Of a stretch of DNA of 64,000 nucleotides, positions 945-16,848 are shown piece after piece (the stretch's first letter is position 1; every line of letters begins with the position of its first letter). The stretch spans positions 1 to 64,000 of the forward strand of contig JAJSZS010000003.1 in NCBI GenBank assembly GCA_030262725.1. Reading direction: 5' to 3'. Below the pieces are notes generated by a model. That model searched no databases and was not told the origin of the DNA. It saw only the letters and a list, made by a program, of their open reading frames with translations. Source of the stretch: Candidatus Desulfofervidus auxilii (GTDB lineage: Bacteria > Desulfobacterota > Desulfofervidia > Desulfofervidales > Desulfofervidaceae). Both the position numbers and the translations under genes were made by a program.

Positions 945-3900
945 TTAAATATGCAGTTCAATAATGCTTGTTGATGTAAAATCTTTTTTTACTAAGATGT
1001 AGGCTGGTAAAAGTTGTTTAAATTTTTCTAAATGTGTAATAATCCCCACTAATCTATCCTGTTGTTTTAATTGATTAAGCACTTCTGCCACTGCATCTAA
1101 TAGATCCTCATCAAGGCTTCCAAAACCCTCATCAATGAAGAAAAAGTGGATAGGACGTGCCTTTGTCTTTTGAATATATGAAGAAAGGGCAAGAGCTAAA
1201 GAAAAGGAAACCAAAAATGTCTCTCCTCCAGAAAGGGTCTCAATCGGGCGCACATGACCTAAAGACTGGTCATAAATAGAAAAATCAAATTCCTTTTTGC
1301 TCATCTGGATAATAAATTTTTCTCCAATTATATCTTTAAGAATGTAATTGGCTTCATATAAAATATTTTGGAATAAATGTCTGGCTGCAAATTTTACTAA
1401 CGCCTTTCCATAAAGGCAATCTTTTAAAGTGAAAGTTAACCTAATTTCCTCTTCATCTTTTTTGATTTCTGCTTCAAGTTTTTGTTTTTGACTTAATTTT
1501 TGCTCTAAATTTTTTACTTCATTTTCCAATGCCCCTTCTTGATTTTGTAAGTATTTTATTTCTTCTTTTAATCTTTCCAGTTTTTTAAAAGTAGCTTCAG
1601 GTTCACCTGGAGGTAGGATCTGGATGGGCAGGTCGTTTATCTGAGTTGCTATCTGTTTTAATTGCCCTTTGATATTCTCTATTTCTTCTTTCCATTTTTC
1701 AATAGTTTGTTTTAAGGCAAGCATTTCTTTTTCTGAAAGTAAAAGACTTTTTAAGCCTGCTAAATCAAGATGTCTCTTTTTTGTTTCTTTTATAAGAATT
1801 TCTGTTAACTCTTGTTTTCTCTGTATTTTGATCCTTAACTGTTCTTTAGTTTTAACCAATTTTGTTTTGATATTTAAGTAATCATTTTGTGCTTTTTGCC
1901 TTATTTCCTCCAATTTTTGTCTCTTTTTATCTAATTTTTGCCTTTGTTCTTTAACTTGATTAAGGAGTTGCTCAGGAGAGTTTTTGCCAATTTTTTCTAT
2001 TATTTCTGTCTTGATATTTACTAGTTCCTTTTCTAAATTTCCTATCAAACTCAATAAGTGCTTAATTTCTTTTTTATGACCTTCGGCTTTACGCCTTTCT
2101 CTTTGTATTTTTTCTTCTTGCTGTTGCAATTTTTCTGCAATCTCTCTAAGTTCTTCGCTAGCCTTATTTTGCAATTCAAATTTGTTTTGTAATTCATCAA
2201 ACAGATTTTTTAATCCTTTTACATCAAGCCTTAAACCTAATTTCCTTAAAATATTTTCTAGCTCTTTTTCAAAATCAGCAAATTTTTCTGAGTATTGTTG
2301 ATGTTTATCCTGTAATTTGGTATTTATTTGCACCAATTTTTCAACAAGAGGTTTTAAATTTTTTCTAATTTGATTTATTGTTTCTATTTTTTTCTCAAGC
2401 TTTTCTTTTTCCCTCTGAGTGTCTTTTATTTTTGCACTAATCTCCTTATCCTGTGCAGGTTTAGGATGGATAGGAGAACCACAAACAGGACAAGGATGCC
2501 CATGTTTAAGCCTGATGGCCAAACTCACTGCCAGGTGTCTTTGGTGGAAATCTTCTAAAACTTTATCAAAAGTCTTTAATGTCTCCTCACATTTTAGCCT
2601 AAAGTCTTCTAATACATCTACTGCATTTTCAGGTGAAGGCAATTCAATTTCAGGCAGCCATTTCTGCCATATCTTTTTTATTCTTGTCTCGCAGTCTTTT
2701 TTTTCTTTTTTAAATATCTCTATTTTTTGTTTAAGTTCTGCTATTTCCTCTTTCCAGCCTTTTAATTTACCCAAATGAGGAGCATATTTTTGTAAGATAT
2801 TAAAAGTCCTTTTTTCTTCTTCATTGAAGGCATTTCTTTCTAAGGTCTTTTTTGCCCTTTTCTGTCTATGCAACAGGAATTGTTTTTGTGTCCTATATTT
2901 TTTTAAAATATGGGCTATATAATTTAATGCCTGTTTGTTTTCATCTAGCTGTTTTTTATTTTTATCAAGCTGTTTTTGTTTTTCTATAAAATCTTTCTCT
3001 AGTTTCTGCGCCTGTCTGGCGTTTTCTTCCAAATGGGCAAGTTCTTCTAATTTTTGAGGAAGGGTTTCTGCAAATTCTTTTAGTTGTTTTTCTGCAAGTT
3101 GCCATTTTTTCTCTAATTTTGCTTCTTTATTTTGCAAATCTTTTAATAATCTTTCTATTTTAGGGATAGAGCTTTTCAATTCTTCATATTCTTTAAATAT
3201 ATGAGCAAAAGGTGCTATTTCTTCTGCCTGTTTTAAACGCCTTTCTTTCTCTTTTATAATTGGCTCATCTAGCTTTAATTTATTAAGTTTTTCTTCTAAT
3301 TCCTTTTTTCGATATAAAAAATCAGCTAATTTGGTTAAATTTTGGTAATATTTTTCAAGTTTATTTTTGCTTTCTTCCTTTTCTTTTAAAACCTTCTTTA
3401 TTTTTTCAACTTCCTGTTTTTTATCATCTATTACTTTTTTACTTACATCTTTTAATGCCAAAAGTTGTTTTTCTTTTCCTTCCTTTAAGATATTTAACTT
3501 CTCAAAATATTGAGTAACCTTTCTCCATAAAGCTTCACCATAAACCTCAAGTCCAAAAAGCTTTTCTAGCATCTCAGCCCGATTTGCAGGGGAAAGTTTT
3601 AAAAACTCTGAAAACTTCCCTTGGGGTAAAATAACTACCTTTGTAAAGTCTTTAAACTCAAGTCCCAAGATATGATCCAAACGATTGCTTACTTCAGTTA
3701 TTTTTTCTGCAATAGGCTCTTTATGTTCTTTAACTACCTTATAAAGTCTTACATAACTATGGCCATATCTATCTATTCCTCGTATTATCTCATATACTAT
3801 TCCATCAATTTCAAAGTTAAATATTACCTTCAATTGCTTGCTACCTGGATTAATAGCTTCTTTTATAGCCTTTTTATCAAGGCGATCCACCTTCCCAAAA

Positions 3901-4055
3901 AGGGCATAGGTTATAGCATCAAGAATACTAGATTTACCATCACCAGTCTTTCCAAAAATACCAAAAAGGCGATACCGATAAAAAGGACGAAAATCTATAA
4001 TTTGTCGTTCTCTGTAGCTATAAAGACCTTCAATTTCCAAACTAACAGGTTTCAT
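945..4055 (-). CDS. sbcC: SbcC/Rad50-family DNA repair ATPase
   Basis: N-terminal Walker A (GKTGDGKSSILDAI), a very long coiled-coil with a central CPVCG zinc hook, and a C-terminal ABC signature/Walker B (LSGGETF ... FFIDEGFGSLD). Confidence 0.9.
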   Translation of the reverse strand: MKPVSLEIEGLYSYRERQIIDFRPFYRYRLFGIFGKTGDGKSSILDAITYALFGKVDRLDKKAIKEAINPGSKQLKVIFNFEIDGIVYEIIRGIDRYGHSYVRLYKVVKEHKEPIAEKITEVSNRLDHILGLEFKDFTKVVILPQGKFSEFLKLSPANRAEMLEKLFGLEVYGEALWRKVTQYFEKLNILKEGKEKQLLALKDVSKKVIDDKKQEVEKIKKVLKEKEESKNKLEKYYQNLTKLADFLYRKKELEEKLNKLKLDEPIIKEKERRLKQAEEIAPFAHIFKEYEELKSSIPKIERLLKDLQNKEAKLEKKWQLAEKQLKEFAETLPQKLEELAHLEENARQAQKLEKDFIEKQKQLDKNKKQLDENKQALNYIAHILKKYRTQKQFLLHRQKRAKKTLERNAFNEEEKRTFNILQKYAPHLGKLKGWKEEIAELKQKIEIFKKEKKDCETRIKKIWQKWLPEIELPSPENAVDVLEDFRLKCEETLKTFDKVLEDFHQRHLAVSLAIRLKHGHPCPVCGSPIHPKPAQDKEISAKIKDTQREKEKLEKKIETINQIRKNLKPLVEKLVQINTKLQDKHQQYSEKFADFEKELENILRKLGLRLDVKGLKNLFDELQNKFELQNKASEELREIAEKLQQQEEKIQRERRKAEGHKKEIKHLLSLIGNLEKELVNIKTEIIEKIGKNSPEQLLNQVKEQRQKLDKKRQKLEEIRQKAQNDYLNIKTKLVKTKEQLRIKIQRKQELTEILIKETKKRHLDLAGLKSLLLSEKEMLALKQTIEKWKEEIENIKGQLKQIATQINDLPIQILPPGEPEATFKKLERLKEEIKYLQNQEGALENEVKNLEQKLSQKQKLEAEIKKDEEEIRLTFTLKDCLYGKALVKFAARHLFQNILYEANYILKDIIGEKFIIQMSKKEFDFSIYDQSLGHVRPIETLSGGETFLVSFSLALALSSYIQKTKARPIHFFFIDEGFGSLDEDLLDAVAEVLNQLKQQDRLVGIITHLEKFKQLLPAYILVKKDFTSTSIIELHI

Positions 4056-5214
4056 TCTTTAATTCTTCTACAAATTTCAAAAAAAGTCTTACTACAGCTT
4101 CATCTGGTGTTTGATTGTATTTTTCCTTATAAAATTCAACAAAAAGCTCTTCTGGTGTTAAATCTGCTACAGCTATTGGTCTATCAACCCAAAACTTAGG
4201 CATTTCAAAACGAAAACCTAAAAGATTATGACTGTATGCCTGTTTAAGCTTAGCAATTTCTTCAGGACTTGCTGCAATTGCTGGAAAACGCAGAAAAACT
4301 AGACTATTTTTGAAATTCACACTTTGTTCTAAAGCTTCATTAATAGTATTAAAATTAAGAGATTTTACAGGTTTTTGACGAGTAAAAGGATAAAATTCAA
4401 TCTTTCCATCTGGTTGTCTTAATAGCACTCCTTTATTTTGATTTGCTTCCTGTATATCAAAAGGAAAAATAGAGCCAGAGTAAAAAATGTTTTTTCCTAA
4501 ACATTGATAGCGGTGTAAATGACCTAAAGCAATATAATTAGCATATTTTGGGAAAAAATCTAAAGGAATTAATTGTGCTCCACCGATGGTGAAATCCCTT
4601 TCTGAACCAGACTTTTGCCCACCCTGGACAAAAAGATGTGAGACAATAATATATTCGTCTGCTCTATATGGAGGTATGGCCTGCAAAATATTTTTAAGGT
4701 GCACTTCGTAATTTGTGCTAACTTTAAGGCGTGCCTCTGAAGGATATGGCAATAAAAGCAAAGAAATAGATGCATTTTTTGATGGAAAAATAGCCTGAAG
4801 AAAATTCCTTTCTCCTTTAAGCCCAAAATGATTTGTTTTAAAGGAAAAAAGGCTTAAATCATCCTGCGGACTGCCACAAATCACCATCGCATGAAAACCT
4901 GCTGCCAGAGGTTTTGGCACATCAAACTTTTCTGGAGCATCATGATTACCAGCAATAGCAATTACAAGTCTCCTTCCATTAGCCGTTAATTCTCTTAAAG
5001 TGCTATAAAATAATTCCTCAGCCTTAAAAGGAGGATTGTAGCTATCAAAAATATCACCAGCGATAAGTACTACATCCACATCTTCTTTCTCTGTTATTTC
5101 TACAATTTCTTTAAGAATCTCTTGCTGAATTTCCAATAAAGAAAAATCAGTATTTTTAAATGTCTTTCCCAAATGCCAGTCTGCGGTATGAAGTAGTTTA
5201 AGCATTTTAAACAA
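4042..5214 (-). CDS. sbcD: SbcD/Mre11-family nuclease. The ORF track uses a TTG start at 5214. A canonical ATG start lies at 5205, 1 nt after the cas2 stop.
   Basis: Calcineurin-like phosphoesterase motifs: LHTADWHLG, IAGDIFD, GNHD, GHLH. Confidence 0.9.
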   Translation of the reverse strand: MFKMLKLLHTADWHLGKTFKNTDFSLLEIQQEILKEIVEITEKEDVDVVLIAGDIFDSYNPPFKAEELFYSTLRELTANGRRLVIAIAGNHDAPEKFDVPKPLAAGFHAMVICGSPQDDLSLFSFKTNHFGLKGERNFLQAIFPSKNASISLLLLPYPSEARLKVSTNYEVHLKNILQAIPPYRADEYIIVSHLFVQGGQKSGSERDFTIGGAQLIPLDFFPKYANYIALGHLHRYQCLGKNIFYSGSIFPFDIQEANQNKGVLLRQPDGKIEFYPFTRQKPVKSLNFNTINEALEQSVNFKNSLVFLRFPAIAASPEEIAKLKQAYSHNLLGFRFEMPKFWVDRPIAVADLTPEELFVEFYKEKYNQTPDEAVVRLFLKFVEELKNETC

Positions 5215-5497
5215 CTTCTACCTTTTCTTCTTCTAAATAAAAAGGTGTTCTGCCAATATGCTCAATTTTTTCTCTACAATGCTCACAAAGAAAATAATAA
5301 ATTACGCTATCTTCAAGTGGATCAATAATTTTTTCAACCCTTCTCTTCATCTGTTCAAATAAATCTCTTTCAATATAACATTCAAACACACTATAAAGCA
5401 CTCTAAAACCATAATCTTCCATCACCTTTGCTACTTTTCTAAGTCTTTCTTCATCCCTTATATCATAACTTGCCACAATAAATTGTTTTTCTTTCAT
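5207..5497 (-). CDS. cas2: Cas2 (second, distal paralog)
   Basis: 96 aa. Has the N-terminal YDI(R)D acidic motif and a ..RVLYSVFEC.. core. About 45% identical to the adjacent cas2. Confidence 0.85.
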   Translation of the reverse strand: MKEKQFIVASYDIRDEERLRKVAKVMEDYGFRVLYSVFECYIERDLFEQMKRRVEKIIDPLEDSVIYYFLCEHCREKIEHIGRTPFYLEEEKVEVV

Positions 5498-5775
5498 ACA
5501 ATTACAAACTCCTCTTCTTCTGGCACCTCTGCAAATCCACTTATTTCAGCACGCTTGCGACAAGCTCGGCAGATTTGATAAATTCTTACCCTATCTTCCT
5601 TTTCACTTATAATCCTTTCTATCCCTCTTTTTACCTCTACAAGTATCTCCTTTGTCAAAAAACATTCAAACACACTCTTTTGCACCCTATGACCATAATC
5701 TTTTAAAAATTTACGCATCCTATCTCGTCTTTTATCATCAGATATATCATAAGAAATAACAAACAAACTCCTCAT
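5494..5775 (-). CDS. cas2: Cas2 (proximal to cas1)
   Basis: 93 aa. Motifs VISYDISDDKRR...RVQKSVFEC. Overlaps the cas1 stop by 4 nt. Confidence 0.85.
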   Translation of the reverse strand: MRSLFVISYDISDDKRRDRMRKFLKDYGHRVQKSVFECFLTKEILVEVKRGIERIISEKEDRVRIYQICRACRKRAEISGFAEVPEEEEFVIV

Positions 5776-6758
5776 CTAAACACCGCTGCCCTGTATTTAT
5801 CTTCTCCTTTAAGTGCACGCACAAAAAGCCTTGTCTGTTCTTCCATATAGCTTCTATAGCTAATTTTTGCCGCTTTTAAAGGATGTGTTACTTTTTCTGC
5901 CATTTTCCTTTCAAATTGAGAAATAAACTTTCGCCATCCATCTCTAGCCAAATAAAGCCCCTCTTCATCTTTTGTAAAATCCTCTTCTTTTATAACCTTA
6001 AGATTAAAAATACTTAAAATCAATGTATCAACAATTACTGGTCTCCATTCTTCCATCAAATCTAACACTAAAGAAGGTCTACCATAATCTATTGTATGAT
6101 AACAACCAAAATATGGGTCTAATCCAACCATGCTTATAATGGAAAAAATATTGCTAAAAAGCAGTGTATAACCAAGGCTTAAAAGAGCATTAACTGGATC
6201 TTTAGGTGGTCTGCGCTCCCGTTTTAAAAAATTAACCTCCTCTAAAAAACCTTTTGCATAGGCAGAAAAATATAATCTACTTGCACTTCCTTCAATCCCT
6301 CTCAAACTTTCTATATTTGTTTCTTCATCTACCTTTTGAACAAACTTTTTTAATTTCAAAATAGTATCCTCAAGCCCAAGTCCCTTCCTATTTATCCTCC
6401 TAAGTAACATCCTTTGATTTTCTATCTTTCCTTTTATAACTGCCTTTGCTATCTCAAGTTTAAAATCAAACTCTTTTAATCTTTCAAATTGTTTTATCCT
6501 AAGTTCTATATTTTTGCTCATCAAAGGAGAAAGTCTCCCTAAATATTTACCTGATGTGGTAAGAAAAACTGTGTCAATTCCCCTTTTAAGCAAAGTAAAA
6601 ATCACTGCTGGAGAAAGGGAAATCCTTCCAATTATGACTAATTGTTCAAGATTATGAAAATGAATTACTTTTAAGACCTTACCTTCTTTTTTAGCAATTA
6701 ATCTTTCTCCATCCTTATGAAGGCTTAAACCTTGTTCTATTGCATAAAAAATGGACAT
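5772..6758 (-). CDS. cas1: Cas1 integrase
   Basis: 328 aa with a typical Cas1 N-terminus (ISLSPAVIFTLLKRGIDTVFLTTSGKYLGRL). Position immediately upstream of cas2. Confidence 0.9.
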   Translation of the reverse strand: MSIFYAIEQGLSLHKDGERLIAKKEGKVLKVIHFHNLEQLVIIGRISLSPAVIFTLLKRGIDTVFLTTSGKYLGRLSPLMSKNIELRIKQFERLKEFDFKLEIAKAVIKGKIENQRMLLRRINRKGLGLEDTILKLKKFVQKVDEETNIESLRGIEGSASRLYFSAYAKGFLEEVNFLKRERRPPKDPVNALLSLGYTLLFSNIFSIISMVGLDPYFGCYHTIDYGRPSLVLDLMEEWRPVIVDTLILSIFNLKVIKEEDFTKDEEGLYLARDGWRKFISQFERKMAEKVTHPLKAAKISYRSYMEEQTRLFVRALKGEDKYRAAVFR

Positions 6759-6759
6759 A

Positions 6760-8472
6760 TTATTTTCTTAAAATCAAATTTTCTCCTTCAAGCATTAATC
6801 TTATGCCTTCAATTTCATATTCTTTTAAACCCTTCTTTAAAAATGCCTTTTTTAACTCTTTTTCAAGTTTTTGAAGCTTCCATTCAATCCTTTCCTTTTC
6901 TTGATAAAACTCTATAAATATCTTTATTAAATGTTTTAATGAACTTCTTTTTAAACTAAATCTATCTTCCTCAGGTGGTACAAGATAACGATTTATATGC
7001 AATAAAGGAGAAGGATAACGTCCATCACTTAAATCAAACACACAATGACAGTCAAGACTTAGGCTTAATTCTGGCACAAGCTCTCTAATTTTTATACAGC
7101 TTATAGGATTTGGTTTCATAGCCTTTAATATTCGTTTAACTTTAAAAAAATTATAATCAGGTGTAGGATAAAGAATCTGATGCAACAAATTATTATTAAG
7201 CAGACCTATTGTATAAAACAAAATAAGTTTTTCTTGATAATTGAGTATCCGACCTGCTTGTGCTTTCTTTACTAACATATCAATAATTGGACAATTTTCC
7301 CTAAGTTTATTTAATATTTCTTCACTCCCCTTTTTCTCTATCTCTTTTACTCTACGCCTTATAAATGTCTTTATTTCCAAAGGATTAAATTCATTTATTC
7401 TTTTTAAAAATTTAATCTGCTCTAAATAAGGCTCCCCATTTTCATCAATAAAAAGACTCCTTTCATTTGTCTCTTTATTAAGTCCAAGAGGTAGAAAGAT
7501 TGGAGTTTCTTTCCAGCCTATACCAACTGGTTTTGTAGGCAAAAGTGGCTCAACCACAATACCAAACTCAGGATAAGGCAATCTTTGTATAATTTCTCTT
7601 AAAAATCTTTTTACTTGCAAAAAATGAATAAAATCTTCTAAAAATATCCATAAGCGATAAAAAAATTGATTAACCCTTTCTAAATAAGCAGGTATATCAA
7701 AAACATTATTGAGTGTTTTTTGTGCTTCAAGACAATAATCTCTTAATTTTTCGCTCTTTAACATTAAATAGGCTGGCTGTCTTGCATAAAGAAATTTTTC
7801 TCTTTTAGAAATAAAAAAAGCAATAATTCCAGATTTTACATGATTATCACTTCTTAAAGGGAAAAAGAAAAGTGTTTTTTGTCCTAAGATATGTGCTCTT
7901 GCAAAATCTGGCATAAGTGGAAGATTATAAAAAATCAATTGTGAAAGGGCAGTCTTTTTATCCAAAATTTGTTCTGCAAATCCTCTTTCTTTACCAGAAA
8001 AAAGCCTTAAAAAGATTTCTATTTCTTCTTTGCCAAGACTTGGTGGAAAATACCTAATTAATGAATCCTTTTTCTCAATCCCTTTTAAACTTTCACTTGC
8101 CCCTTTTAAATCAAGCTCCTCTAAAAGATTAACCCAATAATTATTTATTTCTTTATCATCTGGAATAAGCTTTATTAACTTTTTAAATGCTCCAAAAGCC
8201 TTTTCTAAAAATCCTGTCTCATAAAAGAGAATAGCCAAAGGTTTTAAATAACGAGGATTGTTGGGAGAAAGTTTTAAAGCCAATCCATAACTTTCTATTG
8301 CCTTTTTTGCTATACCAAGCAATTCAAAAGTCTTTCCCCATTCATAATAAAGCTCTGGGTCATTAAAATCTTTTGAGAAATATCTTAATGCTAATTCTAT
8401 TGCTTTGCCTTCATGCCCTTTTTCAAGCTCTTGCTTGATTAATTTTAGGCAATGATAGCCTACCTGCTGCAT
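6760..8472 (-). CDS. Uncharacterised 570-aa protein. N-terminal TPR repeats (~110 aa) followed by a ~450-aa domain I cannot assign. Translationally coupled to cas1.
   Basis: Long ORF with no internal stops. TPR-like N-terminus (AIELALRYF...YYEWGKTFELLGIAKKAIESYGLALKLSPNNPRY). Its stop codon is 1 nt before the cas1 ATG. Confidence 0.75.
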   Translation of the reverse strand: MQQVGYHCLKLIKQELEKGHEGKAIELALRYFSKDFNDPELYYEWGKTFELLGIAKKAIESYGLALKLSPNNPRYLKPLAILFYETGFLEKAFGAFKKLIKLIPDDKEINNYWVNLLEELDLKGASESLKGIEKKDSLIRYFPPSLGKEEIEIFLRLFSGKERGFAEQILDKKTALSQLIFYNLPLMPDFARAHILGQKTLFFFPLRSDNHVKSGIIAFFISKREKFLYARQPAYLMLKSEKLRDYCLEAQKTLNNVFDIPAYLERVNQFFYRLWIFLEDFIHFLQVKRFLREIIQRLPYPEFGIVVEPLLPTKPVGIGWKETPIFLPLGLNKETNERSLFIDENGEPYLEQIKFLKRINEFNPLEIKTFIRRRVKEIEKKGSEEILNKLRENCPIIDMLVKKAQAGRILNYQEKLILFYTIGLLNNNLLHQILYPTPDYNFFKVKRILKAMKPNPISCIKIRELVPELSLSLDCHCVFDLSDGRYPSPLLHINRYLVPPEEDRFSLKRSSLKHLIKIFIEFYQEKERIEWKLQKLEKELKKAFLKKGLKEYEIEGIRLMLEGENLILRK

Positions 8473-8968
8473 AAAAATATTTTGCTTTTTGTAAAAAATT
8501 ATCTAATTGCTGATAAATCTTCCTTTCTTTAGCAAGTGCGGCAATTTCTTCCCTGCTTCAACTAAAGCATTTTCTACCTTTTTAAATAAGCATCAATATC
8601 TTTAGAATATTTGCATTTTATCATTTTCATACTAATTATCTTTACCACATTTGTAGCCATCAAGTAAATGTTTAAAATTTCCAAAATGGTAATAATCAAT
8701 GCTCTTTTTCTGAATATCTCCAATAAAATTCTTAATTGACTGCTTAATCTACCCTCCCACAAATCCTAAAGTCAGATTTAGAGGCAAAAGACAAAAAGAA
8801 AAATAAAGGAAATTTGCGGGCTTATCCAAAATTTTCTACATCACAAATTCTTTTAGGAAAACAGAGATTTGAACAGATAATAAATTGTTTTGGGCTGTTT
8901 TAACATCCCATCCATGGGATTTTTGCCATCTATCCACTTATCTCCTTCTGTTTTAAGACATTCCTTTC

Positions 8969-9920
8969 TTATTTTATTCTTATTTCTATCCATATTTCTT
9001 CACAAAGAATTTCTTCTACAATTTCATCAATAATTTTTGGACTTCTCTCTTCAGGATAAATTAAAGCTTTTATAAGAGGTTTATTAAAAGTCTTTAAAAT
9101 TTCCCTACCAGTATTTGTTATACGATTTTTGTTTTGGTCTAATCTTTCCAATTCCCCTCTTGTAGTCATAGGTAAAAGATAGTTCCTTATAAAAATTTCT
9201 TCTGTCAGATCTTTTTCTTGAAATGCTTTAATAAAAATATCCTTAGCATAAAATCCTTGATTTTTGGGATCGTCTTTATATAATTCTAGTAAGTCATAAT
9301 ATTTTCTATCAAAATTCATCTTAAAAAATGGAATAAAACGGAATTGAAATTTTTTGGGATCTTCACTAGGGGGAGAAAGATATTTTGTATATTCTGAGGC
9401 GCCTAAAAATGTATAATAAATTCGTCCTACTCTTCCACTCAATAAAGCTACTTGTAACAAAGCAGCATTCATAATATTTGTACCACCAGTAATATTACAC
9501 CATATTTGTTTACCTTGCTTTTTACCTTCGCTAAATTTAAGAAATGCCGCTGCCATACGTTCAAAACAAATTTCATAATCATTTTCATTTACAGTGCAAA
9601 TAAAAAGAGTGCTTTTTTTTAGGGAGAATGTTTTTTAAACGGTTTTTTATAAATTTTTCTATAATTTCAATTAAAGTCTTATTCCTTAAAGTTGTACCTT
9701 GAACACTTCCATATTTATTGTCAACACACTCTTTAACAAGCTCTTCTCCTTTACTTACTGCCTGTGAAACAAAAATTACTACACTCTCAATCCTTTCATC
9801 AAAATCCTTTCCTACTAAATCAGAAAATCTCTCAGGATGTGCTTTAATATAAGCTAAAGCAGAAGTCACAGCTCCAGGTGCTTTACCTACTGTAGCAAAA
9901 TGGACTACACCCATAATCAC
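8969..9920 (-). pseudogene. CARF-wHTH (Csa3-like) protein, split by a +/-1 frameshift in a T8 homopolymer (9613-9620). The two ORFs are 9585-9920 and 8969-9556.
   Basis: N-terminal part shows a CARF strand-1 motif (VVHFATVGKAPGAVTSALAYI). C-terminal ORF shows the CARF signature (NITGGTNIM) and a wHTH-like tail (RITNTGREIL). The reading frame switches inside the A8 run on the coding strand. Confidence 0.6.
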
Positions 9921-10609
9921 TCACCTCCAAACCATTGATTGAAATATTCTGGCTTCCTCTCTAAAATACTTCGTAGCACTTTTCCTCTCTGGTTTTTAGA
10001 CAATTTGTGATAAAGTTTTTTACAAGCAATTTCAGCAATAAATTCCCAATCTTTAGCCTTATCTAATTCTTCCGTAAAAAAACGCTTTTCTTCTTCTATT
10101 TTCTCCTGACAATATTTTTTCATCATTAATTCTATCTCCATTCTATTTGCAGAAAATATGTGTGAACCTCTTCTTATGGGAATTTCTTTTGAGTCTATAT
10201 TTACCTCCGAATGTTGCAAGTTTCGTTTAAACATATAAGGAGGATTGTCTGAGTAAATTTCTATAACTATTATTTTTTTACCTTCAATCTCAAACTCTTC
10301 ACAATTTACCCTAGGCACAGGCTCTATCCATTCTGATAAAATTTGATAAATCATCTGACTTAATTGGTCTATTGAGATTTTAGAACAACCTACAATAGGA
10401 GACTCTTCAGAAGATGAGTGTTTTTCATCTTTTATACCAACGATTATATAACCTATTTCTTGGGACAAAGTATTTGCTATAGCAGCTACAAGCTTAGCAA
10501 ATTTTGCCTTATTGGGCTTATTACTTAAATCTAACCTTTCCTTAAAATCTATTTTTTCTATTTCTCTGTGTATCTTGATGATTTCTAAAAGTTCTTTTTT
10601 AGAAAGCAT
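9917..10609 (-). CDS. AlbA_2/Schlafen-like putative DNA-binding domain protein, embedded in the csm operon
   Basis: Pattern matches the AlbA_2 domain: E.EKIDFKERLDL ... AKLVAAIANTLSQEIGYIIVGIKDE ... EFEIEGKKIIVIEIYSDNPPYMFKR. Overlaps both neighbours by 1-4 nt. Confidence 0.5.
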   Translation of the reverse strand: MLSKKELLEIIKIHREIEKIDFKERLDLSNKPNKAKFAKLVAAIANTLSQEIGYIIVGIKDEKHSSSEESPIVGCSKISIDQLSQMIYQILSEWIEPVPRVNCEEFEIEGKKIIVIEIYSDNPPYMFKRNLQHSEVNIDSKEIPIRRGSHIFSANRMEIELMMKKYCQEKIEEEKRFFTEELDKAKDWEFIAEIACKKLYHKLSKNQRGKVLRSILERKPEYFNQWFGGE

Positions 10610-10610
10610 C

Positions 10611-11831
10611 TTAAATTTTTTCCAACTTTACCCATCCTAAAAGATTTTTAGGTTCTCCCATTGCATTTGTAATTACCCGCCTTGTTTTAGGAAACTCTTC
10701 TTTTGTCCGCCAGCGTCTGATGAAGGAAATAGCTTGTCTTAACATTTTATAAACTTGCGGACTGTCTTGTTTTAATTTCAAATCAACCGTTATACTTAAA
10801 AATCCCTGCCCTGCTCCTAATCGCAATAAGGGTGTGTCAGGTCTATTTTGCGTTTTTAAAAATTGTATTTTTTTAAAGATCTCAGGATAATTCCGAAAGT
10901 ATTTCTCTTCATGTTCTAAAAGAGTTTTAGCTTTATAAAAACAGATATTAAAAAGTCCATCTAAAGATAAGTATTTTTCAAATTTTTTATGCCCTAATTT
11001 TTCTAAAAATAAAGATTTCTTTTCTATGTTTAGAGTTGCAATAACTTCCACACCAGCAGATATAGCTTCAAGCCAGGTTTTAGTATAACATTTTGTAGCA
11101 AGACTTTGAGTAAGATAAATCTTAAGATAACTTAAAGGTAAAGGTTGAGTGTCAGCAATAGAGATAAATTTAAAAAAATCATATTTTGCATCAGATCTTC
11201 CATAACAAAGTATTTTAGATTCTAATTCTTTTGCTATTTGCTCCAGTTTTTTTCTTTTATTTTGTGGAGAAAGACCACTTTTATGGATTTTTTGATAATA
11301 TTCTTTTATTTTTATCTCAACTTCCTTAAAAAAACTTTTATCTTGCGTAAGAAAAAAGGAAAGAAAAGCCGTTCGTAAAGCTCCTTTTATTTCTGTTCCA
11401 GGTATGTACGGATTAAACGATGGAGTTTTAAGACAAGTTTTAAACCCATCCTGTGTAGGTTGTACTTCAAATGGAATTCTATAGAGGCAAAATTTTTTAA
11501 CAATAGAAGAAATATTTGTCTCTAATCTATTCTTAAGAAACCAATGGATATCAAGCCTTTGCTCTATTTCTCTTTTTTGTTTTTTTAATCTTCGCAAAAA
11601 TTCAAAGTTATCCCCTGCTGATTTTATCTTTTCTTCTATATCATCTATTTGAGCTAATAGGTTTTCCATCCAGTTTAAAAAGCTTTCTCTTTCTTTTTCA
11701 GAAAAATCTGCAAGCAACCTTTCTATATCAAGCACATAAACCCATCCTTTATCAATAATATAAGAAAGAGGTTTTAAGCTATTTCCATCTCCAATATGTA
11801 CAGGGGTAAGGGTGATAAGTTTTATACGCAT
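10611..11831 (-). CDS. csm5: Csm5 (Cas7-group RAMP)
   Basis: ITLTPVHIGDG N-terminus and an IPGTEIKGALRTAF G-rich loop. 406 aa. Position downstream of csm4. Confidence 0.8.
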   Translation of the reverse strand: MRIKLITLTPVHIGDGNSLKPLSYIIDKGWVYVLDIERLLADFSEKERESFLNWMENLLAQIDDIEEKIKSAGDNFEFLRRLKKQKREIEQRLDIHWFLKNRLETNISSIVKKFCLYRIPFEVQPTQDGFKTCLKTPSFNPYIPGTEIKGALRTAFLSFFLTQDKSFFKEVEIKIKEYYQKIHKSGLSPQNKRKKLEQIAKELESKILCYGRSDAKYDFFKFISIADTQPLPLSYLKIYLTQSLATKCYTKTWLEAISAGVEVIATLNIEKKSLFLEKLGHKKFEKYLSLDGLFNICFYKAKTLLEHEEKYFRNYPEIFKKIQFLKTQNRPDTPLLRLGAGQGFLSITVDLKLKQDSPQVYKMLRQAISFIRRWRTKEEFPKTRRVITNAMGEPKNLLGWVKLEKI

Positions 11832-12946
11832 TTTTTACTTACCTCTATTTTGGCAAATATAGGAAAGGCAATACCATCATAAAATGTATCATCTTGTCCG
11901 ATTTTTCCTATAGCTATGAGTTTTCCGTAACTTTCTTTTTTAGATAAAAATGTAAATAAAGATCCCTCTTCAAAGCAGCGTATTAGTTTTTTAAAAATCC
12001 CTCGGTTATCATAGGAATACAAGGTATCTAATTTTGCTCTCAAGTTTAAAATATTCCATAAAGAAAGAGATAAATCTATCTCATCTTTTACAGGCACATA
12101 TCTTGAAAGTGTTATAAAAACATTAGGATTTTGAACAGCAGGCGGCTCATATTTTTCTATTTGAAACCTGAAGTGTCCTTTTCCTGCAGTTCTCTCTCCA
12201 CCTATGCCTGTATCGGCTAAAAATCGTAAAAGAGAATGTATAAACTCTTTGTCTTTTGTTTTTATAAGAAACCACAAACCACAACAGGTATGAAAAAATA
12301 TCTCTTTTCTGAAAAATAAAAATCCTTCACCTGTAGAAAAGGAAATCCTGTCAATTTGATTTTTTTGAATATCTATTTCCTTAAAAAGGTATTTATCTAT
12401 TAGCTCGCCCTCAGGGTCTATTTGCCTCCTTTCTTCAGTAGTAATCAAACAAAAACCGTATTTTTCTATATCTGTTTTTATGCTCCCTCTCTTTTTTAAC
12501 CAAAAACATATTTTAGAATACCCAAAGTTACCCTTTATCATTCCCCAAAAGATGTTTTCTGAGACATATCTAATTCTTTTAAAATCTTTTAATCTTTCAC
12601 TGATTCTCAAAAAAGCCAAGTTAAAGTTTAAAACTTCATCCTGTGTGATAATTTCTCCTATTCTCTTCTGTTTTTCTATTAGTTTTTTTCTTTCTTCATA
12701 ATCTGGATCAGGCAGAAGTGGTTTAGGAAAAAAATGAATTTTCCTATCGCTATTAAATACGCAAGGAAAACTAGAACTTAAAATAAATGGAGGAGAGTTT
12801 TCTATAAAGGCCGAAAGGGTCTCTTTAAGTCTTTTTTTGCCGTAGAGATGGAAAATTGCCCAGCAAAAGGCACCAAATAAGGTATCAGAAGCAGGCCATG
12901 TAGTAAAAGAAGACTTTGGGTATAAATAAACTGCATAAGTTTGCAT
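11822..12946 (-). CDS. csm4: Csm4 (Cas5-group RAMP)
   Basis: N-terminal YPKSSFTTWPASDTLFGAFCWA signature. Confidence 0.85.
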   Translation of the reverse strand: MQTYAVYLYPKSSFTTWPASDTLFGAFCWAIFHLYGKKRLKETLSAFIENSPPFILSSSFPCVFNSDRKIHFFPKPLLPDPDYEERKKLIEKQKRIGEIITQDEVLNFNLAFLRISERLKDFKRIRYVSENIFWGMIKGNFGYSKICFWLKKRGSIKTDIEKYGFCLITTEERRQIDPEGELIDKYLFKEIDIQKNQIDRISFSTGEGFLFFRKEIFFHTCCGLWFLIKTKDKEFIHSLLRFLADTGIGGERTAGKGHFRFQIEKYEPPAVQNPNVFITLSRYVPVKDEIDLSLSLWNILNLRAKLDTLYSYDNRGIFKKLIRCFEEGSLFTFLSKKESYGKLIAIGKIGQDDTFYDGIAFPIFAKIEVSKKCV

Positions 12947-12951
12947 AGAAA

Positions 12952-13905
12952 TTACTCCACATTAGGAAAATTCTCAATAATTTGTTTAACAGTAATTATT
13001 TCCCTCTCTATCTCACCTTTAATTGGATGAACAAATTTTTCTTTTATAGGCTGTATCTTATTCAGACTTTCTACAATTTCATCCTTACCATCTGTTTTTC
13101 CTGTTTGGTAATATTCTTTAGAATGAAACTCTATAAAGTTTTTATTTTTTTTATTTTCAAATATAAATTTTATCTTCCCATATCCTCTGCTTCCAGATCC
13201 CCCAAGGCTGCTATCTTCTAGAAGAAGCATAGCAGTGAAAACATCCTTTAAAAGCTTTTTATCTTCATTACGATAAATGTCAAAAATTATTTCTAACTGA
13301 AACTCTGATCCTGCAGGCACTCTTTCCATTGGACGGGGAGTAGCTTGAGAGGTAATCCGATCAATGGTATTTTCTGTCTTAATCTCTGTATATGTTGCTT
13401 CACCTAAAAGTGTTTGCCATAAATTTATAGTGTCATCTACAGGAAAAGCATCTCTTATTGTGATTCTAGTAGGCTGTGCCCCTGATGCAGTTGCAGATGT
13501 TCCAAAAATTAAACAAATTTCGCATTCGTTTATTAATTCTTTTAATTTTTTTTCAATTTCTTGCTTTTTTTCTTCTTCTTTTTCCTTATTTTTTGCTTGT
13601 TGATATTTTCTAAGCTCTGCCTTCAGTTGCTTAATTTCAGGATGGTTTTCACAAGAATGGGCAGGAAATTTATTTTTATCATCTGAATATACTTTTCCCA
13701 ATTTCCACTCTAAAAGACACCGCATCTTTCCCTTTAGAGAAGAACCAGGAATGTATGGATAACCAGTTAAGGGGTCTTTTATAACCACATTATCAACTCC
13801 ACCTATTTCTATTCCTTCTTGAGTACCGCCGATATGAAGACCTGTTTCAAGTCTGACAATACCCTTAATTAAGTATTTTCCTAAAAAGCTAAGTTCTTGT
13901 TGCAT
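12952..13905 (-). CDS. csm3: Csm3 (Cas7 backbone subunit) with a zinc-finger insertion
   Basis: GLHIGG and a GSSLKGKMR G-rich loop. CxxH...CEIC insertion. 317 aa. Confidence 0.85.
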   Translation of the reverse strand: MQQELSFLGKYLIKGIVRLETGLHIGGTQEGIEIGGVDNVVIKDPLTGYPYIPGSSLKGKMRCLLEWKLGKVYSDDKNKFPAHSCENHPEIKQLKAELRKYQQAKNKEKEEEKKQEIEKKLKELINECEICLIFGTSATASGAQPTRITIRDAFPVDDTINLWQTLLGEATYTEIKTENTIDRITSQATPRPMERVPAGSEFQLEIIFDIYRNEDKKLLKDVFTAMLLLEDSSLGGSGSRGYGKIKFIFENKKNKNFIEFHSKEYYQTGKTDGKDEIVESLNKIQPIKEKFVHPIKGEIEREIITVKQIIENFPNVE

Positions 13906-13907
13906 TT

Positions 13908-14339
13908 TTACCCTCCACGAGGATAATGATATTTATGATATGCTATAATTGCTTCCAAGAAATCAGCTAAGCGAAGAAAATCTTCATTTGTTTGGAGAAT
14001 TTCCTTACGTAAGCATATTTTTAATACTTTCTGATAGAATTCTTTTGGTATAAGTCCTCTTCCTACTGAATATACTAAAACAGGCAAAAGCTTAGCTACC
14101 TGTGCAAAATCAAATGGATCATTAGGTTTACGGCTTATCTTTCTAGAAATTGCTTTAATTTCGTTGAAAAATTTCCGCAATTGAGTCATTTTTAACTCTT
14201 TTGCATTTTGGACAATTTTATCTGCAAGTCCACCTTCGTCACAAAATTCTTTGTAGTCTAATTCTTTAAAAGAATGAAGCTCGCGTAAACGTTCTTCTAT
14301 TTCTTTAAAACCCTTCTTTTTTTTAGATTCTTCTTTCAT
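13908..14339 (-). CDS. csm2: Csm2 (Cas11 small subunit)
   Basis: 143-aa helical protein with the TQLRKFFNEIKAI motif. Position between cas10 and csm3. Confidence 0.75.
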   Translation of the reverse strand: MKEESKKKKGFKEIEERLRELHSFKELDYKEFCDEGGLADKIVQNAKELKMTQLRKFFNEIKAISRKISRKPNDPFDFAQVAKLLPVLVYSVGRGLIPKEFYQKVLKICLRKEILQTNEDFLRLADFLEAIIAYHKYHYPRGG

Positions 14340-14340
14340 A

Positions 14341-16848
14341 CTAACTCCCCCTTATCTTCAAGCTTACATAAGAAGTAATTATTCTCAAACTATTATTAAA
14401 AAACTTAGATATTTTCTCAACCAATTCAGCCTTAACCTCTTCATCTTTTATTCTTCTTACCACATTATAAAAAAAATATGGCACCCACATTAAAGTGGTT
14501 TCTTTTTCTAAATTATGCAGAAAATATATAAATCCACGCGGCATTTTTTCTTCTTTTATCCAAGAAATCATCTTTTCAGCAAAATTAAACACTTCTTTAA
14601 ATTCATTCCACTTTATAGTTCTATTAAATAAAGTTAATCTGTTTTTCTCATTGAACCCTTTAACTTCACAAGTTTTAGATCTTTCTAATGCTTGACCTGC
14701 TAAATGCACAAATCTCTGAATAGGAAAAAGAGGTTTTACAAAACATATCCCACCTGAAAGATGAAAGTTTTCGTTAAAAGAAGTATAAGCTGTAAAATCT
14801 TGTTGAATCTTGTAACTTAGCTCAATAATAGCATCCCAAGGGCCTATGATTAACAAATCATCTCCACCTGCATAAAGGATATAATAAAGACTTTCAAAAG
14901 CACCTTGCCAGTTTTTATTTTCTTTTACCCATTTTTCTGTTAGCTCTCTACAAATTACATTTAGCCATCCACCAAAAAACAAGTCTAAAATTGTGCTTAA
15001 AGTGGAAATCCTTGAAAAGGACATTTCTTCTTTTTTTAACCCTAACGCAAATATTGCTCCCAAATAATCAACATCCATTTTTAATACACCTAAATATTTT
15101 GCTCCTTTGTTTAACTCAGCTATTTCTTCAAAACTTAAAATATCTCCCTTTTTTACTTCTTCATCTTTTACATTTATTCCTTCCTTCAATACTTTGGGCA
15201 CAGCATTTGCGATAAACTTAAACCCAAAAGAGGTAGATTTACCCTTCTTTTTGAAGTCTAATAGATTTTCAGGGATAAAATCACTTTCAGGATTTAGTAC
15301 ATAAATAACTGCTTTTTGCTCATTATCTATACATGAACAAAATGCCTTTATCTCCTCCTCAGAAATCAAATACACATAAACACCTAATTTTTTAAAAGCA
15401 ACCTTTACGAGATGTTTCAAATTTTCCTTAAAAATTTCTTTAATTAGAATAGGTTTTCCATAAAGAAAAACGATATATTTTGTTTTAGGCAACTTATTTC
15501 CAATTTCCTCTTGTTTTTTACATTGAATACAACATATTTCATTATCTTTTATTTGAGAAACCAAACACACTCTACACACATTTAAAGGAACACTTTTTTC
15601 GGGTGTAAAAAAGTCACTGGTTTTTAATATCTCTAAAAATTTCTTATATTTTTGTTTTGCCAATGTATCTTCAAGTTTCTGATAAACAAAAGAAAGATCC
15701 AGAAAATCTTTTGGACATATTTCCACAGCTGCTATTTGAAGACTTAACTCTCCATTAAACTCCTCAAGAAGCCACTTATTTAGTTGAGACAATAAATTGG
15801 GAATTTTCTCTTCTGCGGTAATAGGCAAAAGCAAATCAAATCTTCCTCCACCACAAAAAAGAATATTGGCAACAGGAAGTTCAATTTCCCTTATAATCCA
15901 ATCAGCAATAACCTCTGTAAGAAGGGTTACAAAAAATGACCTTCCTCTAAGCCTTTTTGCTGTTTTTCTAGTATCTTTCTCAGGTTCAGGGCGGGTAATA
16001 GAATAAATAAATTTTTGGATACCTGCTATATCTCCTCTTAATAACAAAAATAAAGGTTTTTTAGTTATATCTAATGAATTAAACCTCCTTTCAAAATCTT
16101 CCTCTTTATAACTTTTAAGAATTTTCACTAATTCTTTCATTTCCTGTAAAGATAGGTCATTCTTAGAAAGCTTATTTAAACAAGCGGCAATTGCACATGT
16201 GATTTTGGAATGGTCAAACAAAGAAATATCAGGAATAGTTTGAGCGTCTTTTTCCCATGGAGTAGCTGAAGGAACAAATAAAACAAACTTTTTTAAAAGG
16301 TAATATAAAGTCACAAAATCACAATCTTGATATTTACTAAGTCGCTTAACACTCCCGAAAAATTCTTCCCAAGTAGTTTTATAAGCATCTTCTTCTACTT
16401 TTTCTTTCTCTGTAGGAAATAAAATTTCTTTTTTAATCTGCAAAGGATAGGGCTGATAATATTTTTCAGTAGGTGGGTTGGCATGAAGTTTAATTTTTGA
16501 AGTAATAGCAACTAAAGCAGCCTGTTTAGAAGAAATCCTTTCTCTCACTTCCTGCCTTCTCTCAATTGATGAAAGCTTATCTGCTATTTGCAAAATTAAC
16601 TCATCTTTAGTAGTAGGAATTTCATGGTGGTTTCTTACTAACTTCTTTATTTCTATCCATACTGTTTCTTCCCAGAAACTTTTAAGAGCTTTAATAAAAT
16701 GCTCTCCTACCTCCGCATGCGTTCCTAAAAACTCTTTACTTGCCCTTTGGGACAATTTTCCAATATCATGTAAAAGACTTGCTAATAAAATAATCCTTTC
16801 ATTTTTATCCATTTTCATTTTCCTTCCTTCAAACACCCACACGTCCAA
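14341..16848 (-). CDS. cas10: Cas10/Csm1 with intact HD nuclease and GGDD cyclase motifs
   Basis: N-terminal HD (LLHDIGK ... NHHE), a treble-clef zinc finger (CRVCLVSQIKDNEICCIQC), and a palm GGDD (YAGGDDLLIIG). The real start is probably an internal Met (MKMDKNE near 16812-16818). Confidence 0.9.
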   Translation of the reverse strand: MDVWVFEGRKMKMDKNERIILLASLLHDIGKLSQRASKEFLGTHAEVGEHFIKALKSFWEETVWIEIKKLVRNHHEIPTTKDELILQIADKLSSIERRQEVRERISSKQAALVAITSKIKLHANPPTEKYYQPYPLQIKKEILFPTEKEKVEEDAYKTTWEEFFGSVKRLSKYQDCDFVTLYYLLKKFVLFVPSATPWEKDAQTIPDISLFDHSKITCAIAACLNKLSKNDLSLQEMKELVKILKSYKEEDFERRFNSLDITKKPLFLLLRGDIAGIQKFIYSITRPEPEKDTRKTAKRLRGRSFFVTLLTEVIADWIIREIELPVANILFCGGGRFDLLLPITAEEKIPNLLSQLNKWLLEEFNGELSLQIAAVEICPKDFLDLSFVYQKLEDTLAKQKYKKFLEILKTSDFFTPEKSVPLNVCRVCLVSQIKDNEICCIQCKKQEEIGNKLPKTKYIVFLYGKPILIKEIFKENLKHLVKVAFKKLGVYVYLISEEEIKAFCSCIDNEQKAVIYVLNPESDFIPENLLDFKKKGKSTSFGFKFIANAVPKVLKEGINVKDEEVKKGDILSFEEIAELNKGAKYLGVLKMDVDYLGAIFALGLKKEEMSFSRISTLSTILDLFFGGWLNVICRELTEKWVKENKNWQGAFESLYYILYAGGDDLLIIGPWDAIIELSYKIQQDFTAYTSFNENFHLSGGICFVKPLFPIQRFVHLAGQALERSKTCEVKGFNEKNRLTLFNRTIKWNEFKEVFNFAEKMISWIKEEKMPRGFIYFLHNLEKETTLMWVPYFFYNVVRRIKDEEVKAELVEKISKFFNNSLRIITSYVSLKIRGS

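Follow-up and report, generated by a model that had tools for sequence, protein, structure and literature searches.

Two tandem, divergent Cas2 proteins encoded after Cas1 in a type III-A CRISPR locus of Candidatus Desulfofervidus auxilii, and their possible role as a mixed integrase core

A stretch of 64,000 nucleotides of Candidatus Desulfofervidus auxilii, hereafter termed the window, was found to encode two different Cas2 proteins, Cas2-A and Cas2-B, directly after Cas1 in the adaptation module of a type III-A CRISPR system (Table 1). It is considered probable, with an estimated probability of roughly 60%, that the two proteins pair up as a Cas2A/Cas2B heterodimer and in this form connect two Cas1 dimers in the integrase of this system. 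The presence of two Cas2 proteins, which was reported earlier only for some systems with a reverse transcriptase (RT)-Cas1 fusion, is the rule in one clade of modules that contain a CRISPR-associated primase-polymerase (CAPP), and it is also frequently encountered in sulfate-reducer-like bacteria with plain modules of types III-A and III-B.

Table 1. Location and profile matches of the cas2 pair and of the surrounding features in the window
Feature	Position	Strand	Length (aa)	Matches and remarks
sbcC	945..4055	minus	1036	SbcC Walker B and SMC_N matches
sbcD	4042..5205	minus		TIGR00619 1.9e-51
cas2-B (distal, divergent copy)	5207..5497	minus	96	PF09827 1.3e-22, TIGR01573 5.9e-17
cas2-A (cas1-proximal copy)	5494..5775	minus	93	PF09827 1.6e-24, TIGR01573 1.1e-18
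cas1 (integrase subunit)	5772..6758	minus	328	PF01867 1.1e-95, TIGR00287 2.1e-92
CAPP (CRISPR-associated primase-polymerase, TPR-AEP-CTD type)	6760..8472	minus	570	NF040561 1e-90; PF22548 AEP and TPR matches
type III-A effector operon (cas10/csm1, csm2, csm3, csm4, csm5)	10611..16848	minus		TIGR02578 3.2e-178, TIGR01870, TIGR02582, TIGR01903, TIGR01899
CRISPR array	17956..18630	plus		36-nt repeat GTTAGAAACCTTGACCCGATTTGAGGGGATTGCGAC in 8 good copies and a degenerate ninth copy at 18595; leader-repeat region at 17631..17991

An earlier note, made from the sequence alone, had described two tandem, divergent cas2 genes following cas1, and open reading frames were found at exactly the coordinates that it gave, both of which score above the Cas2 cutoffs. 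According to the list of open reading frames, cas1, cas2-A, and cas2-B are arranged head to tail on the minus strand. The sequences of the cas1/cas2-A and cas2-A/cas2-B junctions each consist of a 4-nt ATGA overlap, with the cas1 stop overlapping the cas2-A start, and the Shine-Dalgarno-like motif of cas2-B (AGAGGAG) is located inside the 3' end of cas2-A. Cas1 is a stand-alone protein without a reverse transcriptase fusion and has end-to-end matches to Cas1 models only. The end of the CAPP gene is separated from the cas1 start by a single nucleotide, and its product was assigned to the NF040561 family "CRISPR-associated primase-polymerase type A1" with 304.8 bits over residues 17 to 540 (cutoff of 200), with additional matches to PF22548 (AEP) and TPR_2. 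The csm operon lies upstream of this CAPP-cas1-cas2 module, and both the operon and the array, which is the sole array in the window, are at most 13 kb away from the cas2 pair. No other cas1 or cas2 gene was found within the 64-kb window. Downstream of cas2-B, sbcD starts either at an ATG at position 5205, 1 nt past the cas2-B stop, or at a TTG at position 5214 that would overlap cas2-B, and its end is overlapped by sbcC, the final gene of the same tight string. SbcCD was rejected as a conserved partner of the module, since this adjacency was seen in the present genome only and other loci with the pair have different downstream genes.

Both proteins are clear members of the Cas2 family. Cas2-A and Cas2-B scored 86.3 and 80.1 bits against PF09827 (curated cutoff of 23.8 bits) and 67.3 and 61.7 bits against TIGR01573 (curated cutoff of 24.5 bits). 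The view that both copies are intact and retain the N-terminal acidic residue was borne out: there is no frameshift, and the Asp at the end of strand beta1 (D10 in A and D12 in B) is kept as part of a Tyr-Asp pair that is invariant in the homologue alignments of both copies. A comparison with Cas2 structures, also suggested by the earlier note with a view to the catalytic Asp, agrees with this assignment, and a Cas2 fold is predicted for both proteins. The AF2 monomer model of Cas2-A (pLDDT of 87.3) has the ferredoxin-like order b1-a1-b2-b3-a2-b4, and that of Cas2-B (pLDDT of 88.3) shows the expected Cas2 order of elements. The top Foldseek matches of the two models were all Cas2 proteins, with a probability of 1.00 and TM scores of 0.7 to 0.85; the closest solved structures are T. 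thermophilus Cas2 (1zpw, TM score of 0.83) for Cas2-A and the type I-C Cas2 of D. vulgaris (3oq2) for Cas2-B. The C-terminal tails of both proteins are acidic and then hydrophobic, namely, EEEEFVIV in A and EEEKVEVV in B.

The two copies share 35 of 88 aligned residues in a gapless BLASTP alignment (40% identity, E = 2e-20), which confirms their divergence but shows the earlier by-eye estimate of about 45% to be slightly too high. In the phylogenetic tree, B sequences form a clade with a bootstrap value of 80%, whereas A sequences fall into two subclades with values of 88% and 86%. Identical sets of loci make up the A and the B subclades, indicating that both copies have diverged in parallel. 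Values of dN ranged from 0.08 to 0.42, and those of dS were above 1.4 or saturated; wherever it was computable, dN/dS was at most 0.22 and comparable to that of cas1, a ratio that is meaningful as an upper bound only because most pairs show saturation at synonymous sites. Both cas2 copies are under purifying selection. The wording "duplicated and diverged" of the earlier note has thus proved too simple, since B constitutes an old clade of its own, and the level of identity together with the separate clades rules out that it is a recent tandem copy of A. As for the deeper placement of B, bootstrap values did not exceed 24% for any position. A Cas4-linked family of 96-aa Cas2 proteins is about 40% identical to B, and the motif "RL.K.AK" is common to B and the Cas2 proteins of Cas4-Cas1-Cas2 modules. 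A clear import of B from such a type I module was rejected, however, given that the corresponding grouping had a bootstrap value of only 24%. The mean identity of B was 43% to single CAPP-type Cas2 proteins versus 36% to the Cas4-linked family.

Differences between A and B are concentrated in a few features. Cas2-A possesses R17, L24, and Q32, as is typical for the single Cas2 of CAPP modules, whereas L19, M26, and L34 are found at the equivalent positions of Cas2-B. The Arg and Gln that are lost in B are present in 100% of the single CAPP-type Cas2 proteins; the Gln is also found in the solved Cas2 structures 1zpw, 4qr0, and 3oq2. In addition, B is acidic, with a net charge of about -3, as opposed to the mildly basic A (about +2), and its N terminus is longer by 2 to 5 amino acids. 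Judged from these sequence features, B appears to be the divergent, specialised copy and A the conservative one that resembles the single CAPP-type Cas2.

Clear evidence for the conservation of the pair came from related genomes, the survey of which the earlier note had recommended and which revealed the same A/B pair in 9 distinct genomes or MAGs and on at least 37 metagenome contigs. The order CAPP-cas1-cas2A-cas2B was present in all 9 distinct genomes or MAGs, all of them Thermodesulfobacteriota, that encode a CAPP at least 34% identical to the present one. In contrast, all 13 distinct, more distant CAPP loci examined, defined by a CAPP of at most 25% identity or, for a Clostridia locus, by a match of 1.3e-57 to the CAPP profile, have a single cas2. 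In a metagenome scan seeded with motifs of the B clade, 71 of 80 loci contained the pair; CAPP was present on the same contig in 37 cases, 22 contigs were too short to judge, and 12 had room for CAPP but lacked it. Four apparent B-only metagenome loci were all at contig ends, and two loci (L038 and L083) possibly lack the A copy, although this is doubtful. No stand-alone B-type genes away from cas1 were seen on those scanned contigs that were long enough to judge. The pair is also retained in gene-order variants, namely, cas2B-CAPP-cas1-cas2A (L059) and cas2A-cas2B-CAPP (L039 and L060). A deposited Ca. Desulfofervidus auxilii protein that is present on 3 contigs matches Cas2-B with 100% identity, and Cas2-A is 98% identical to a protein present on 5 contigs.

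The closest precedent is the RT-Cas1-Cas2A-Cas2B module of V. vulnificus YJ016, a type III-D system of RT-CRISPR clade 6 with a layout that is also frequent in clade 13 (PMC6821258). Deletion of either Cas2A or Cas2B alone abolished spacer acquisition by this module, and the authors proposed a Cas2 heterodimer (PMC6821258). Both modules have two different tandem cas2 genes right after cas1, belong to a type III-associated operon with a dedicated polymerase, and encode Cas2 proteins that both carry the catalytic-site Asp. They differ in that RT is fused to Cas1 in V. vulnificus, whereas the module studied here has a separate AEP primase-polymerase and a stand-alone Cas1, and in that the effector is of type III-A here. 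Furthermore, the Vibrio paralogues are about 70% identical, as compared to the 40% of the old, separately conserved A and B lineages. Another point of reference are the CAPP_A modules of the TPR type, such as that of Marinitoga piezophila, which share the CAPP architecture NF040561 (TPR, AEP, and CTD) and the position of CAPP directly upstream of cas1-cas2 in a type III locus (PMC8211822). The M. piezophila Cas1-Cas2 was shown to carry out integration with one self-associating Cas2, and CAPP was found to bind Cas1 but not Cas2 (PMC8211822), which implies that CAPP has no intrinsic need of a second Cas2. Two-cas2 variants are not mentioned in that study (PMC8211822), whereas the present locus and all close CAPP relatives carry two cas2 genes.

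The two-cas2 layout also extends to modules without CAPP. CAPP-less cas1-cas2-cas2 modules were identified at type III-A and III-B loci of Desulfobacterota-like genomes (L112, L113, and L088-L111); this layout is common, and the family of its distal copy comprises 640 sequence clusters. The L112 genome belongs to a mesophilic relative. The distal copy is 47% identical to B and shares with it the motif "RL..[VI]AK.M.DYG", whereas it differs from B in retaining the Gln (RVQKS) and in the absence of the Cys of SVFEC; the proximal copy is nearer to A than to B. Reciprocal similarity suggests that the distal copy is orthologous to B, a grouping without bootstrap support. In the literature on two, duplicated, or heterodimeric Cas2 proteins, only the V. 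vulnificus work was directly relevant, which is not proof of novelty since most subscription-journal papers lay outside the search.

Cas1-Cas2 integrases are understood as two-fold symmetric assemblies that are built around a Cas2 homodimer. The A and B models superpose on the Cas2 chains of canonical Cas1(4)-Cas2(2) integrases (E. coli type I-E and types I-C, I-G, and II-A; e.g., 8d3l and 7mi4) with TM scores of 0.76 to 0.85. However, these complexes contain two copies of one Cas2, whereas two distinct gene products are available here for the two positions. According to the model that we favour, the products of cas2-A and cas2-B would be subunits of one and the same spacer integrase that cannot replace each other and are presumably both needed. 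They would be co-translated with Cas1 from one operon and assemble into a heterodimer that joins two Cas1 dimers in the adaptation complex, with CAPP acting alongside the integrase via Cas1. The specialised role would fall to B, in which strand beta2 is altered (Gln to Leu) and the surface is acidic, and an integrase with such a mixed core would no longer be two-fold symmetric. What may be gained by this asymmetry is a matter of speculation, but it could allow one prespacer end, or one integration step, to be told from the other without a PAM. The dimer would also contain conserved CxxC motifs, which may bind zinc. Of the ideas put forward in the earlier note, the heterodimer that we infer here is the best supported: the two genes are found together in many lineages, diverge in parallel, and are translationally coupled, the fold and tail are kept in both copies, and the V. 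vulnificus module provides a precedent (PMC6821258).

It is unlikely, though well worth considering, that each Cas2 homodimerises instead, giving rise to two integrase versions, Cas1-A2 and Cas1-B2, that might differ in substrate (e.g., DNA made by CAPP as opposed to DNA already present) or in the step performed (capture versus integration). Self-association is a general property of Cas2 proteins, also of the CAPP-linked MpCas2 and DbCas2, both copies retain the full fold, the Asp, and the C-terminal tail, and the conserved linkage and purifying selection fit this scenario as well as they fit a heterodimer. However, the tight 1:1 translational coupling suits one complex better than two, and B was never found apart from A, save at contig ends or in the two doubtful loci. 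The loss of acquisition upon either single deletion in the only two-Cas2 module tested so far also argues against redundant homodimeric complexes in that system (PMC6821258).

Other explanations assign B a role outside the integrase or regard the pair as accidental. B may have acquired a new function, whether as a nuclease, as a toxin-like protein, or as a regulator, and be no more than co-expressed with the adaptation genes, but this is regarded as distinctly improbable. Cas2 is related to VapD-type toxins, some Cas2 proteins have nuclease activity in vitro, and in B the otherwise conserved Cas2 Gln is replaced and the charge has turned acidic. Yet Pfam and NCBIfam return Cas2 alone for B, far above the cutoffs, the Cas2 tail is kept, and the gene remains beside cas2-A and cas1 in numerous lineages and in variants of the gene order, with no free-standing B-type genes away from cas1 on sufficiently long contigs. 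The suggestion that one copy serves a second array type found no support either, as there is a single array in the window and the pair is always within one cas1 operon. That the pair stems from a local duplication of recent date, from an error in assembly, or from rearrangement with a second CRISPR locus that left a redundant copy was assigned a minimal likelihood, and the comparative data effectively refute this reading. The match of B to a type I-C Cas2 and its "RL.K.AK" motif make an ancient foreign origin conceivable, but identity between the copies is no higher than 40%, purifying selection acts on both, 9 or more genomes and dozens of metagenome contigs have orthologous pairs, and the window is devoid of any further cas1, cas2, or array. 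A frameshift or artefact is ruled out by the full-length orthologues and by the identical or near-identical proteins on independent contigs; neither such an error nor a copy moved in by simple rearrangement, the two outcomes that the earlier note had named as speaking against its claim, was thus encountered.

Annotation pipelines and classification schemes label both genes plainly "cas2." In its boldest form, which we put forward tentatively and consider rather doubtful, the proposal is that there exists a large, hitherto undescribed lineage of type III adaptation modules, some with CAPP and many without, that is characterised by an ancient and obligate Cas2A/Cas2B heterodimer and in which the asymmetry of the core lets PAM-less systems tell the prespacer ends apart and thereby sets the spacer orientation. 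If true, a conserved and widespread asymmetric Cas2A/Cas2B core would offer a direct experimental handle on how the spacer orientation is chosen in PAM-less type III systems and would bear on the contribution of Cas2 beyond scaffolding.

Two tandem cas2 genes directly follow cas1, as an earlier note made from the sequence alone had claimed (see the table). The products of the cas1-proximal gene (Cas2-A) and of the distal gene (Cas2-B) far exceed the curated cutoffs of the Cas2 families PF09827 (86.3 and 80.1 bits, respectively; cutoff 23.8) and TIGR01573 (67.3 and 61.7 bits; cutoff 24.5). ATGA stop-start overlaps are present at the cas1/cas2-A and cas2-A/cas2-B junctions, and an AGAGGAG motif lies inside the 3' end of cas2-A, upstream of the cas2-B start. 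The note was right that the copies are divergent, but the 45% identity it had judged by eye is too high, since alignment gives 40% across 88 residues without gaps (E = 2e-20). A deposited Candidatus Desulfofervidus auxilii protein is identical to Cas2-B, and five contigs carry a protein 98% identical to Cas2-A; the pair is therefore not a sequencing artefact. No additional cas1, cas2, or CRISPR-associated primase-polymerase (CAPP) gene was found elsewhere in the 64 kb window.

Features of the locus and its surroundings
Feature	Coordinates	Strand	Description
sbcD-sbcC	945..5214	minus	downstream of cas2-B
cas2-B	5207..5497	minus	96-aa ORF, next after cas2-A
cas2-A	5494..5775	minus	93-aa ORF, next after cas1
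cas1	5772..6758	minus	328 aa
CAPP		minus	570 aa, TPR-AEP; upstream of cas1, 1-nt gap; NF040561 match
Region without long ORF	8473..8968		~500 nt, after the short CARF-like ORFs
Two short ORFs	8969..9920	minus	111 aa and 195 aa, adjacent; between csm5/SLFN and CAPP
Schlafen/AlbA_2-domain protein gene	9917..10609	minus	PF04326, 6.6e-17; directly after csm5, overlaps neighbours
Type III-A csm1-csm5 operon			complete; upstream of CAPP
CARF/ring-nuclease-like gene			upstream of CAPP, beyond the csm operon
CRISPR array	17956..18630		36-nt repeat, single array
367-aa protein gene	18832..19935	minus	C-terminal NUDIX domain, weak nucleotide-cyclase-like match

Purifying selection acts on both cas2 copies: orthologue dN was 0.08-0.42 with dS >1.4 or saturated, and dN/dS, where computable, was at most 0.22 in both, comparable to cas1. 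Confident AlphaFold2 models (pLDDT 87.3 for Cas2-A and 88.3 for Cas2-B) show the b1-a1-b2-b3-a2-b4 Cas2 fold with a flexible C-terminal tail. In Foldseek, both fall among solved Cas2 proteins, including the integrase-complex chains 8d3l and 7mi4 (TM 0.76-0.85); the nearest structure is T. thermophilus TT1823 for A and D. vulgaris type I-C Cas2 for B. The N-terminal acidic residue noted earlier is indeed kept in both, as part of a Tyr-Asp at the end of beta1. At both C-termini an acidic stretch gives way to hydrophobic residues; in Cas1-Cas2 structures it is through this C-terminal segment that Cas2 docks on Cas1. A CxxC motif just after strand beta4 is conserved in both copies (C69/C72 in A, C71/C74 in B) and in CAPP-linked and CAPP-less pair Cas2 proteins across the comparison loci (L001-L113), most of which additionally carry the Cys of SVFEC; it is absent from the closest solved structures 1zpw, 4qr0, and 3oq2. 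The motif might bind a metal, perhaps with both subunits of the dimer contributing.

The two copies belong to separate lineages. Neighbour-joining trees of 119 Cas2 sequences place the distal copies in one clade (80% bootstrap) and the proximal copies in two subclades (88% and 86%) whose membership mirrors that of the two B subclades, indicating that A and B co-diverged. Mean identity is 38% between A and B; to the single Cas2 found in deltaproteobacterial CAPP loci it is 45-49% for A and 43% for B, and B averages 36% identity to a Cas4-linked 96-aa Cas2 family. No placement of the B branch point among the remaining Cas2 exceeded 24% bootstrap. A retains R17, L24, and Q32, which are invariant in single CAPP-type Cas2, whereas B has L19, M26, and L34 at these positions; the replaced Gln is present in 1zpw, 4qr0, and 3oq2. 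Net charge is about +2 in A orthologues and about -3 in B orthologues.

The CAPP gene product matches NF040561, 'CRISPR-associated primase-polymerase type A1' (1e-90, 304.8 bits; cutoff 200), and so belongs to the CAPP family of Zabrady et al. (PMC8211822). It is preceded by two short ORFs, the SLFN/AlbA_2 gene, csm1-csm5, the CARF/ring-nuclease-like gene, and the CRISPR array. The second short ORF has a weak Card1-type CARF match, and the two may together represent one CARF effector gene that has been split or has degraded. The Schlafen/AlbA_2 gene may belong to the type III-A operon as an accessory gene. The NUDIX protein gene adjoins the trailer end of the array, and its product may or may not have a part in cyclic-oligoadenylate signalling. 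The sbcD gene starts at ATG 5205, 1 nt past the cas2-B stop (an alternative TTG at 5214 overlaps cas2-B), and sbcC overlaps the sbcD end, so that CAPP-cas1-cas2A-cas2B-sbcD-sbcC is one unbroken gene string. SbcCD was not seen beside the other cas2 pairs examined, and this adjacency may therefore be a lineage-specific link of a DNA-end nuclease with adaptation.

Homologue context look-ups for A and B revealed the order CAPP-cas1-cas2 (~93 aa)-cas2 (~96 aa) in other Thermodesulfobacteriota MAGs. In a genome survey by CAPP alignment (one genome per species; all ORFs profiled for Cas2, Cas1, and CAPP), two cas2 genes were present in all loci whose CAPP shares at least 34% identity with that of the window. 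The pair, which the earlier note had proposed to look for in related genomes, thus occurs in the same order in nine distinct lineages including the window (Desulfofervidaceae, Desulfobacterales, Desulfobacteraceae, and unclassified 'Deltaproteobacteria' or Thermodesulfobacteriota). More distant CAPP loci, namely scan loci with CAPP identity of at most 25% plus a Clostridia MAG (L008) from the context look-up, have exactly one cas2 each (13 distinct loci; Desulfomonilaceae, Planctomycetota, a Sericytochromatia MAG, and others). Scanning metagenomes with B-clade motifs as seeds yielded 80 loci, 71 of them with a cas2 pair; 37 of these pairs share a contig with CAPP, 22 are on contigs too short to judge, and 12 have no CAPP although the contig extends 1.8 kb or more upstream of cas1. 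The four loci that seem to be 'B only' all lie at contig ends; in L038 and L083 the A copy may be absent. Both cas2 types are retained in a subgroup of rearranged CAPP modules, with the order cas2B-CAPP-cas1-cas2A (L059:1509-4853), cas2A-cas2B-CAPP (L039:295-2217 and L060:825-1741), or a 1.3-kb gap ahead of the pair (L041:244-4858). In one MAG a 125-aa ORF is inserted between cas2-A and cas2-B (L015:3708-4085); elsewhere the two overlap or lie at most ~60 nt apart.

Pairs without CAPP belong to type III loci, in which cas1-cas2-cas2 comes after a RAMP/Csm5 gene and Csm6 or Card1. This layout, without CAPP and without RT, was found in L088-L113, and on two long contigs it adjoins a complete type III-A locus (L112, layout at 8569-10279) and a type III-B locus (L113, layout at 8570-10279); no description of it was found in the searchable literature, coverage of which is incomplete. 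A search with one CAPP-less distal copy gave 640 clusters (90% identity, E at most 1e-5), mostly from Desulfobacterales-like MAGs. The distal copies of L112 and L113 are 47% identical to window B and 39-42% to A, their proximal copies 35-39% to A and 32-34% to B, and the two copies within each locus 32-35% to one another. This reciprocal pattern and the motif 'RL..[VI]AK.M.DYG', common to B and the CAPP-less distal copies, suggest that the A/B split is older than the CAPP-linked clade, with weak tree support.

Two Cas2 proteins, ~70% mutually identical, also occur in the RT-Cas1-Cas2A-Cas2B module (type III-D) of V. vulnificus; acquisition was lost on deletion of either, and the authors suggested a heterodimer (González-Delgado et al. 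2019, PMC6821258). The same paper names the possession of two Cas2 proteins as a hallmark of RT-CRISPR clade 6 that is also common in clade 13; no other directly relevant two-Cas2 report was found in the searchable, incomplete literature. The CAPP-Cas1-Cas2 system studied earlier has one, self-associating Cas2, and CAPP binds Cas1, not Cas2; two-cas2 variants go unmentioned there (PMC8211822).

A recent duplication or an artefact as the source of the pair is excluded. Read most economically, both copies would be subunits of one integrase, whose central Cas2 dimer would be a Cas2A/Cas2B heterodimer. This reading draws on the tight translational coupling, strict co-occurrence, and co-divergence of the copies, on purifying selection on both with all Cas2 hallmarks retained, on the systematic specialisation of B, and on the Vibrio precedent. 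The main rival, in which each Cas2 copy would form a homodimer and so give its own version of the integrase, fits most of these data as well; a Cas2 role outside the integrase is conceivable but has no support. Pairs also exist without CAPP, and the Marinitoga piezophila CAPP functions alongside a single Cas2; the second Cas2 is therefore no adaptor for CAPP as such. As a speculation, the second Cas2 of a heterodimer would break symmetry in type III adaptation.

The cas2 pair is thus real, and broader than could be seen from the sequence of the window. Two-Cas2 adaptation modules are known but little studied; new here, compared with V. vulnificus, are the primase-polymerase in place of the RT-Cas1 fusion and a far older A/B divergence.
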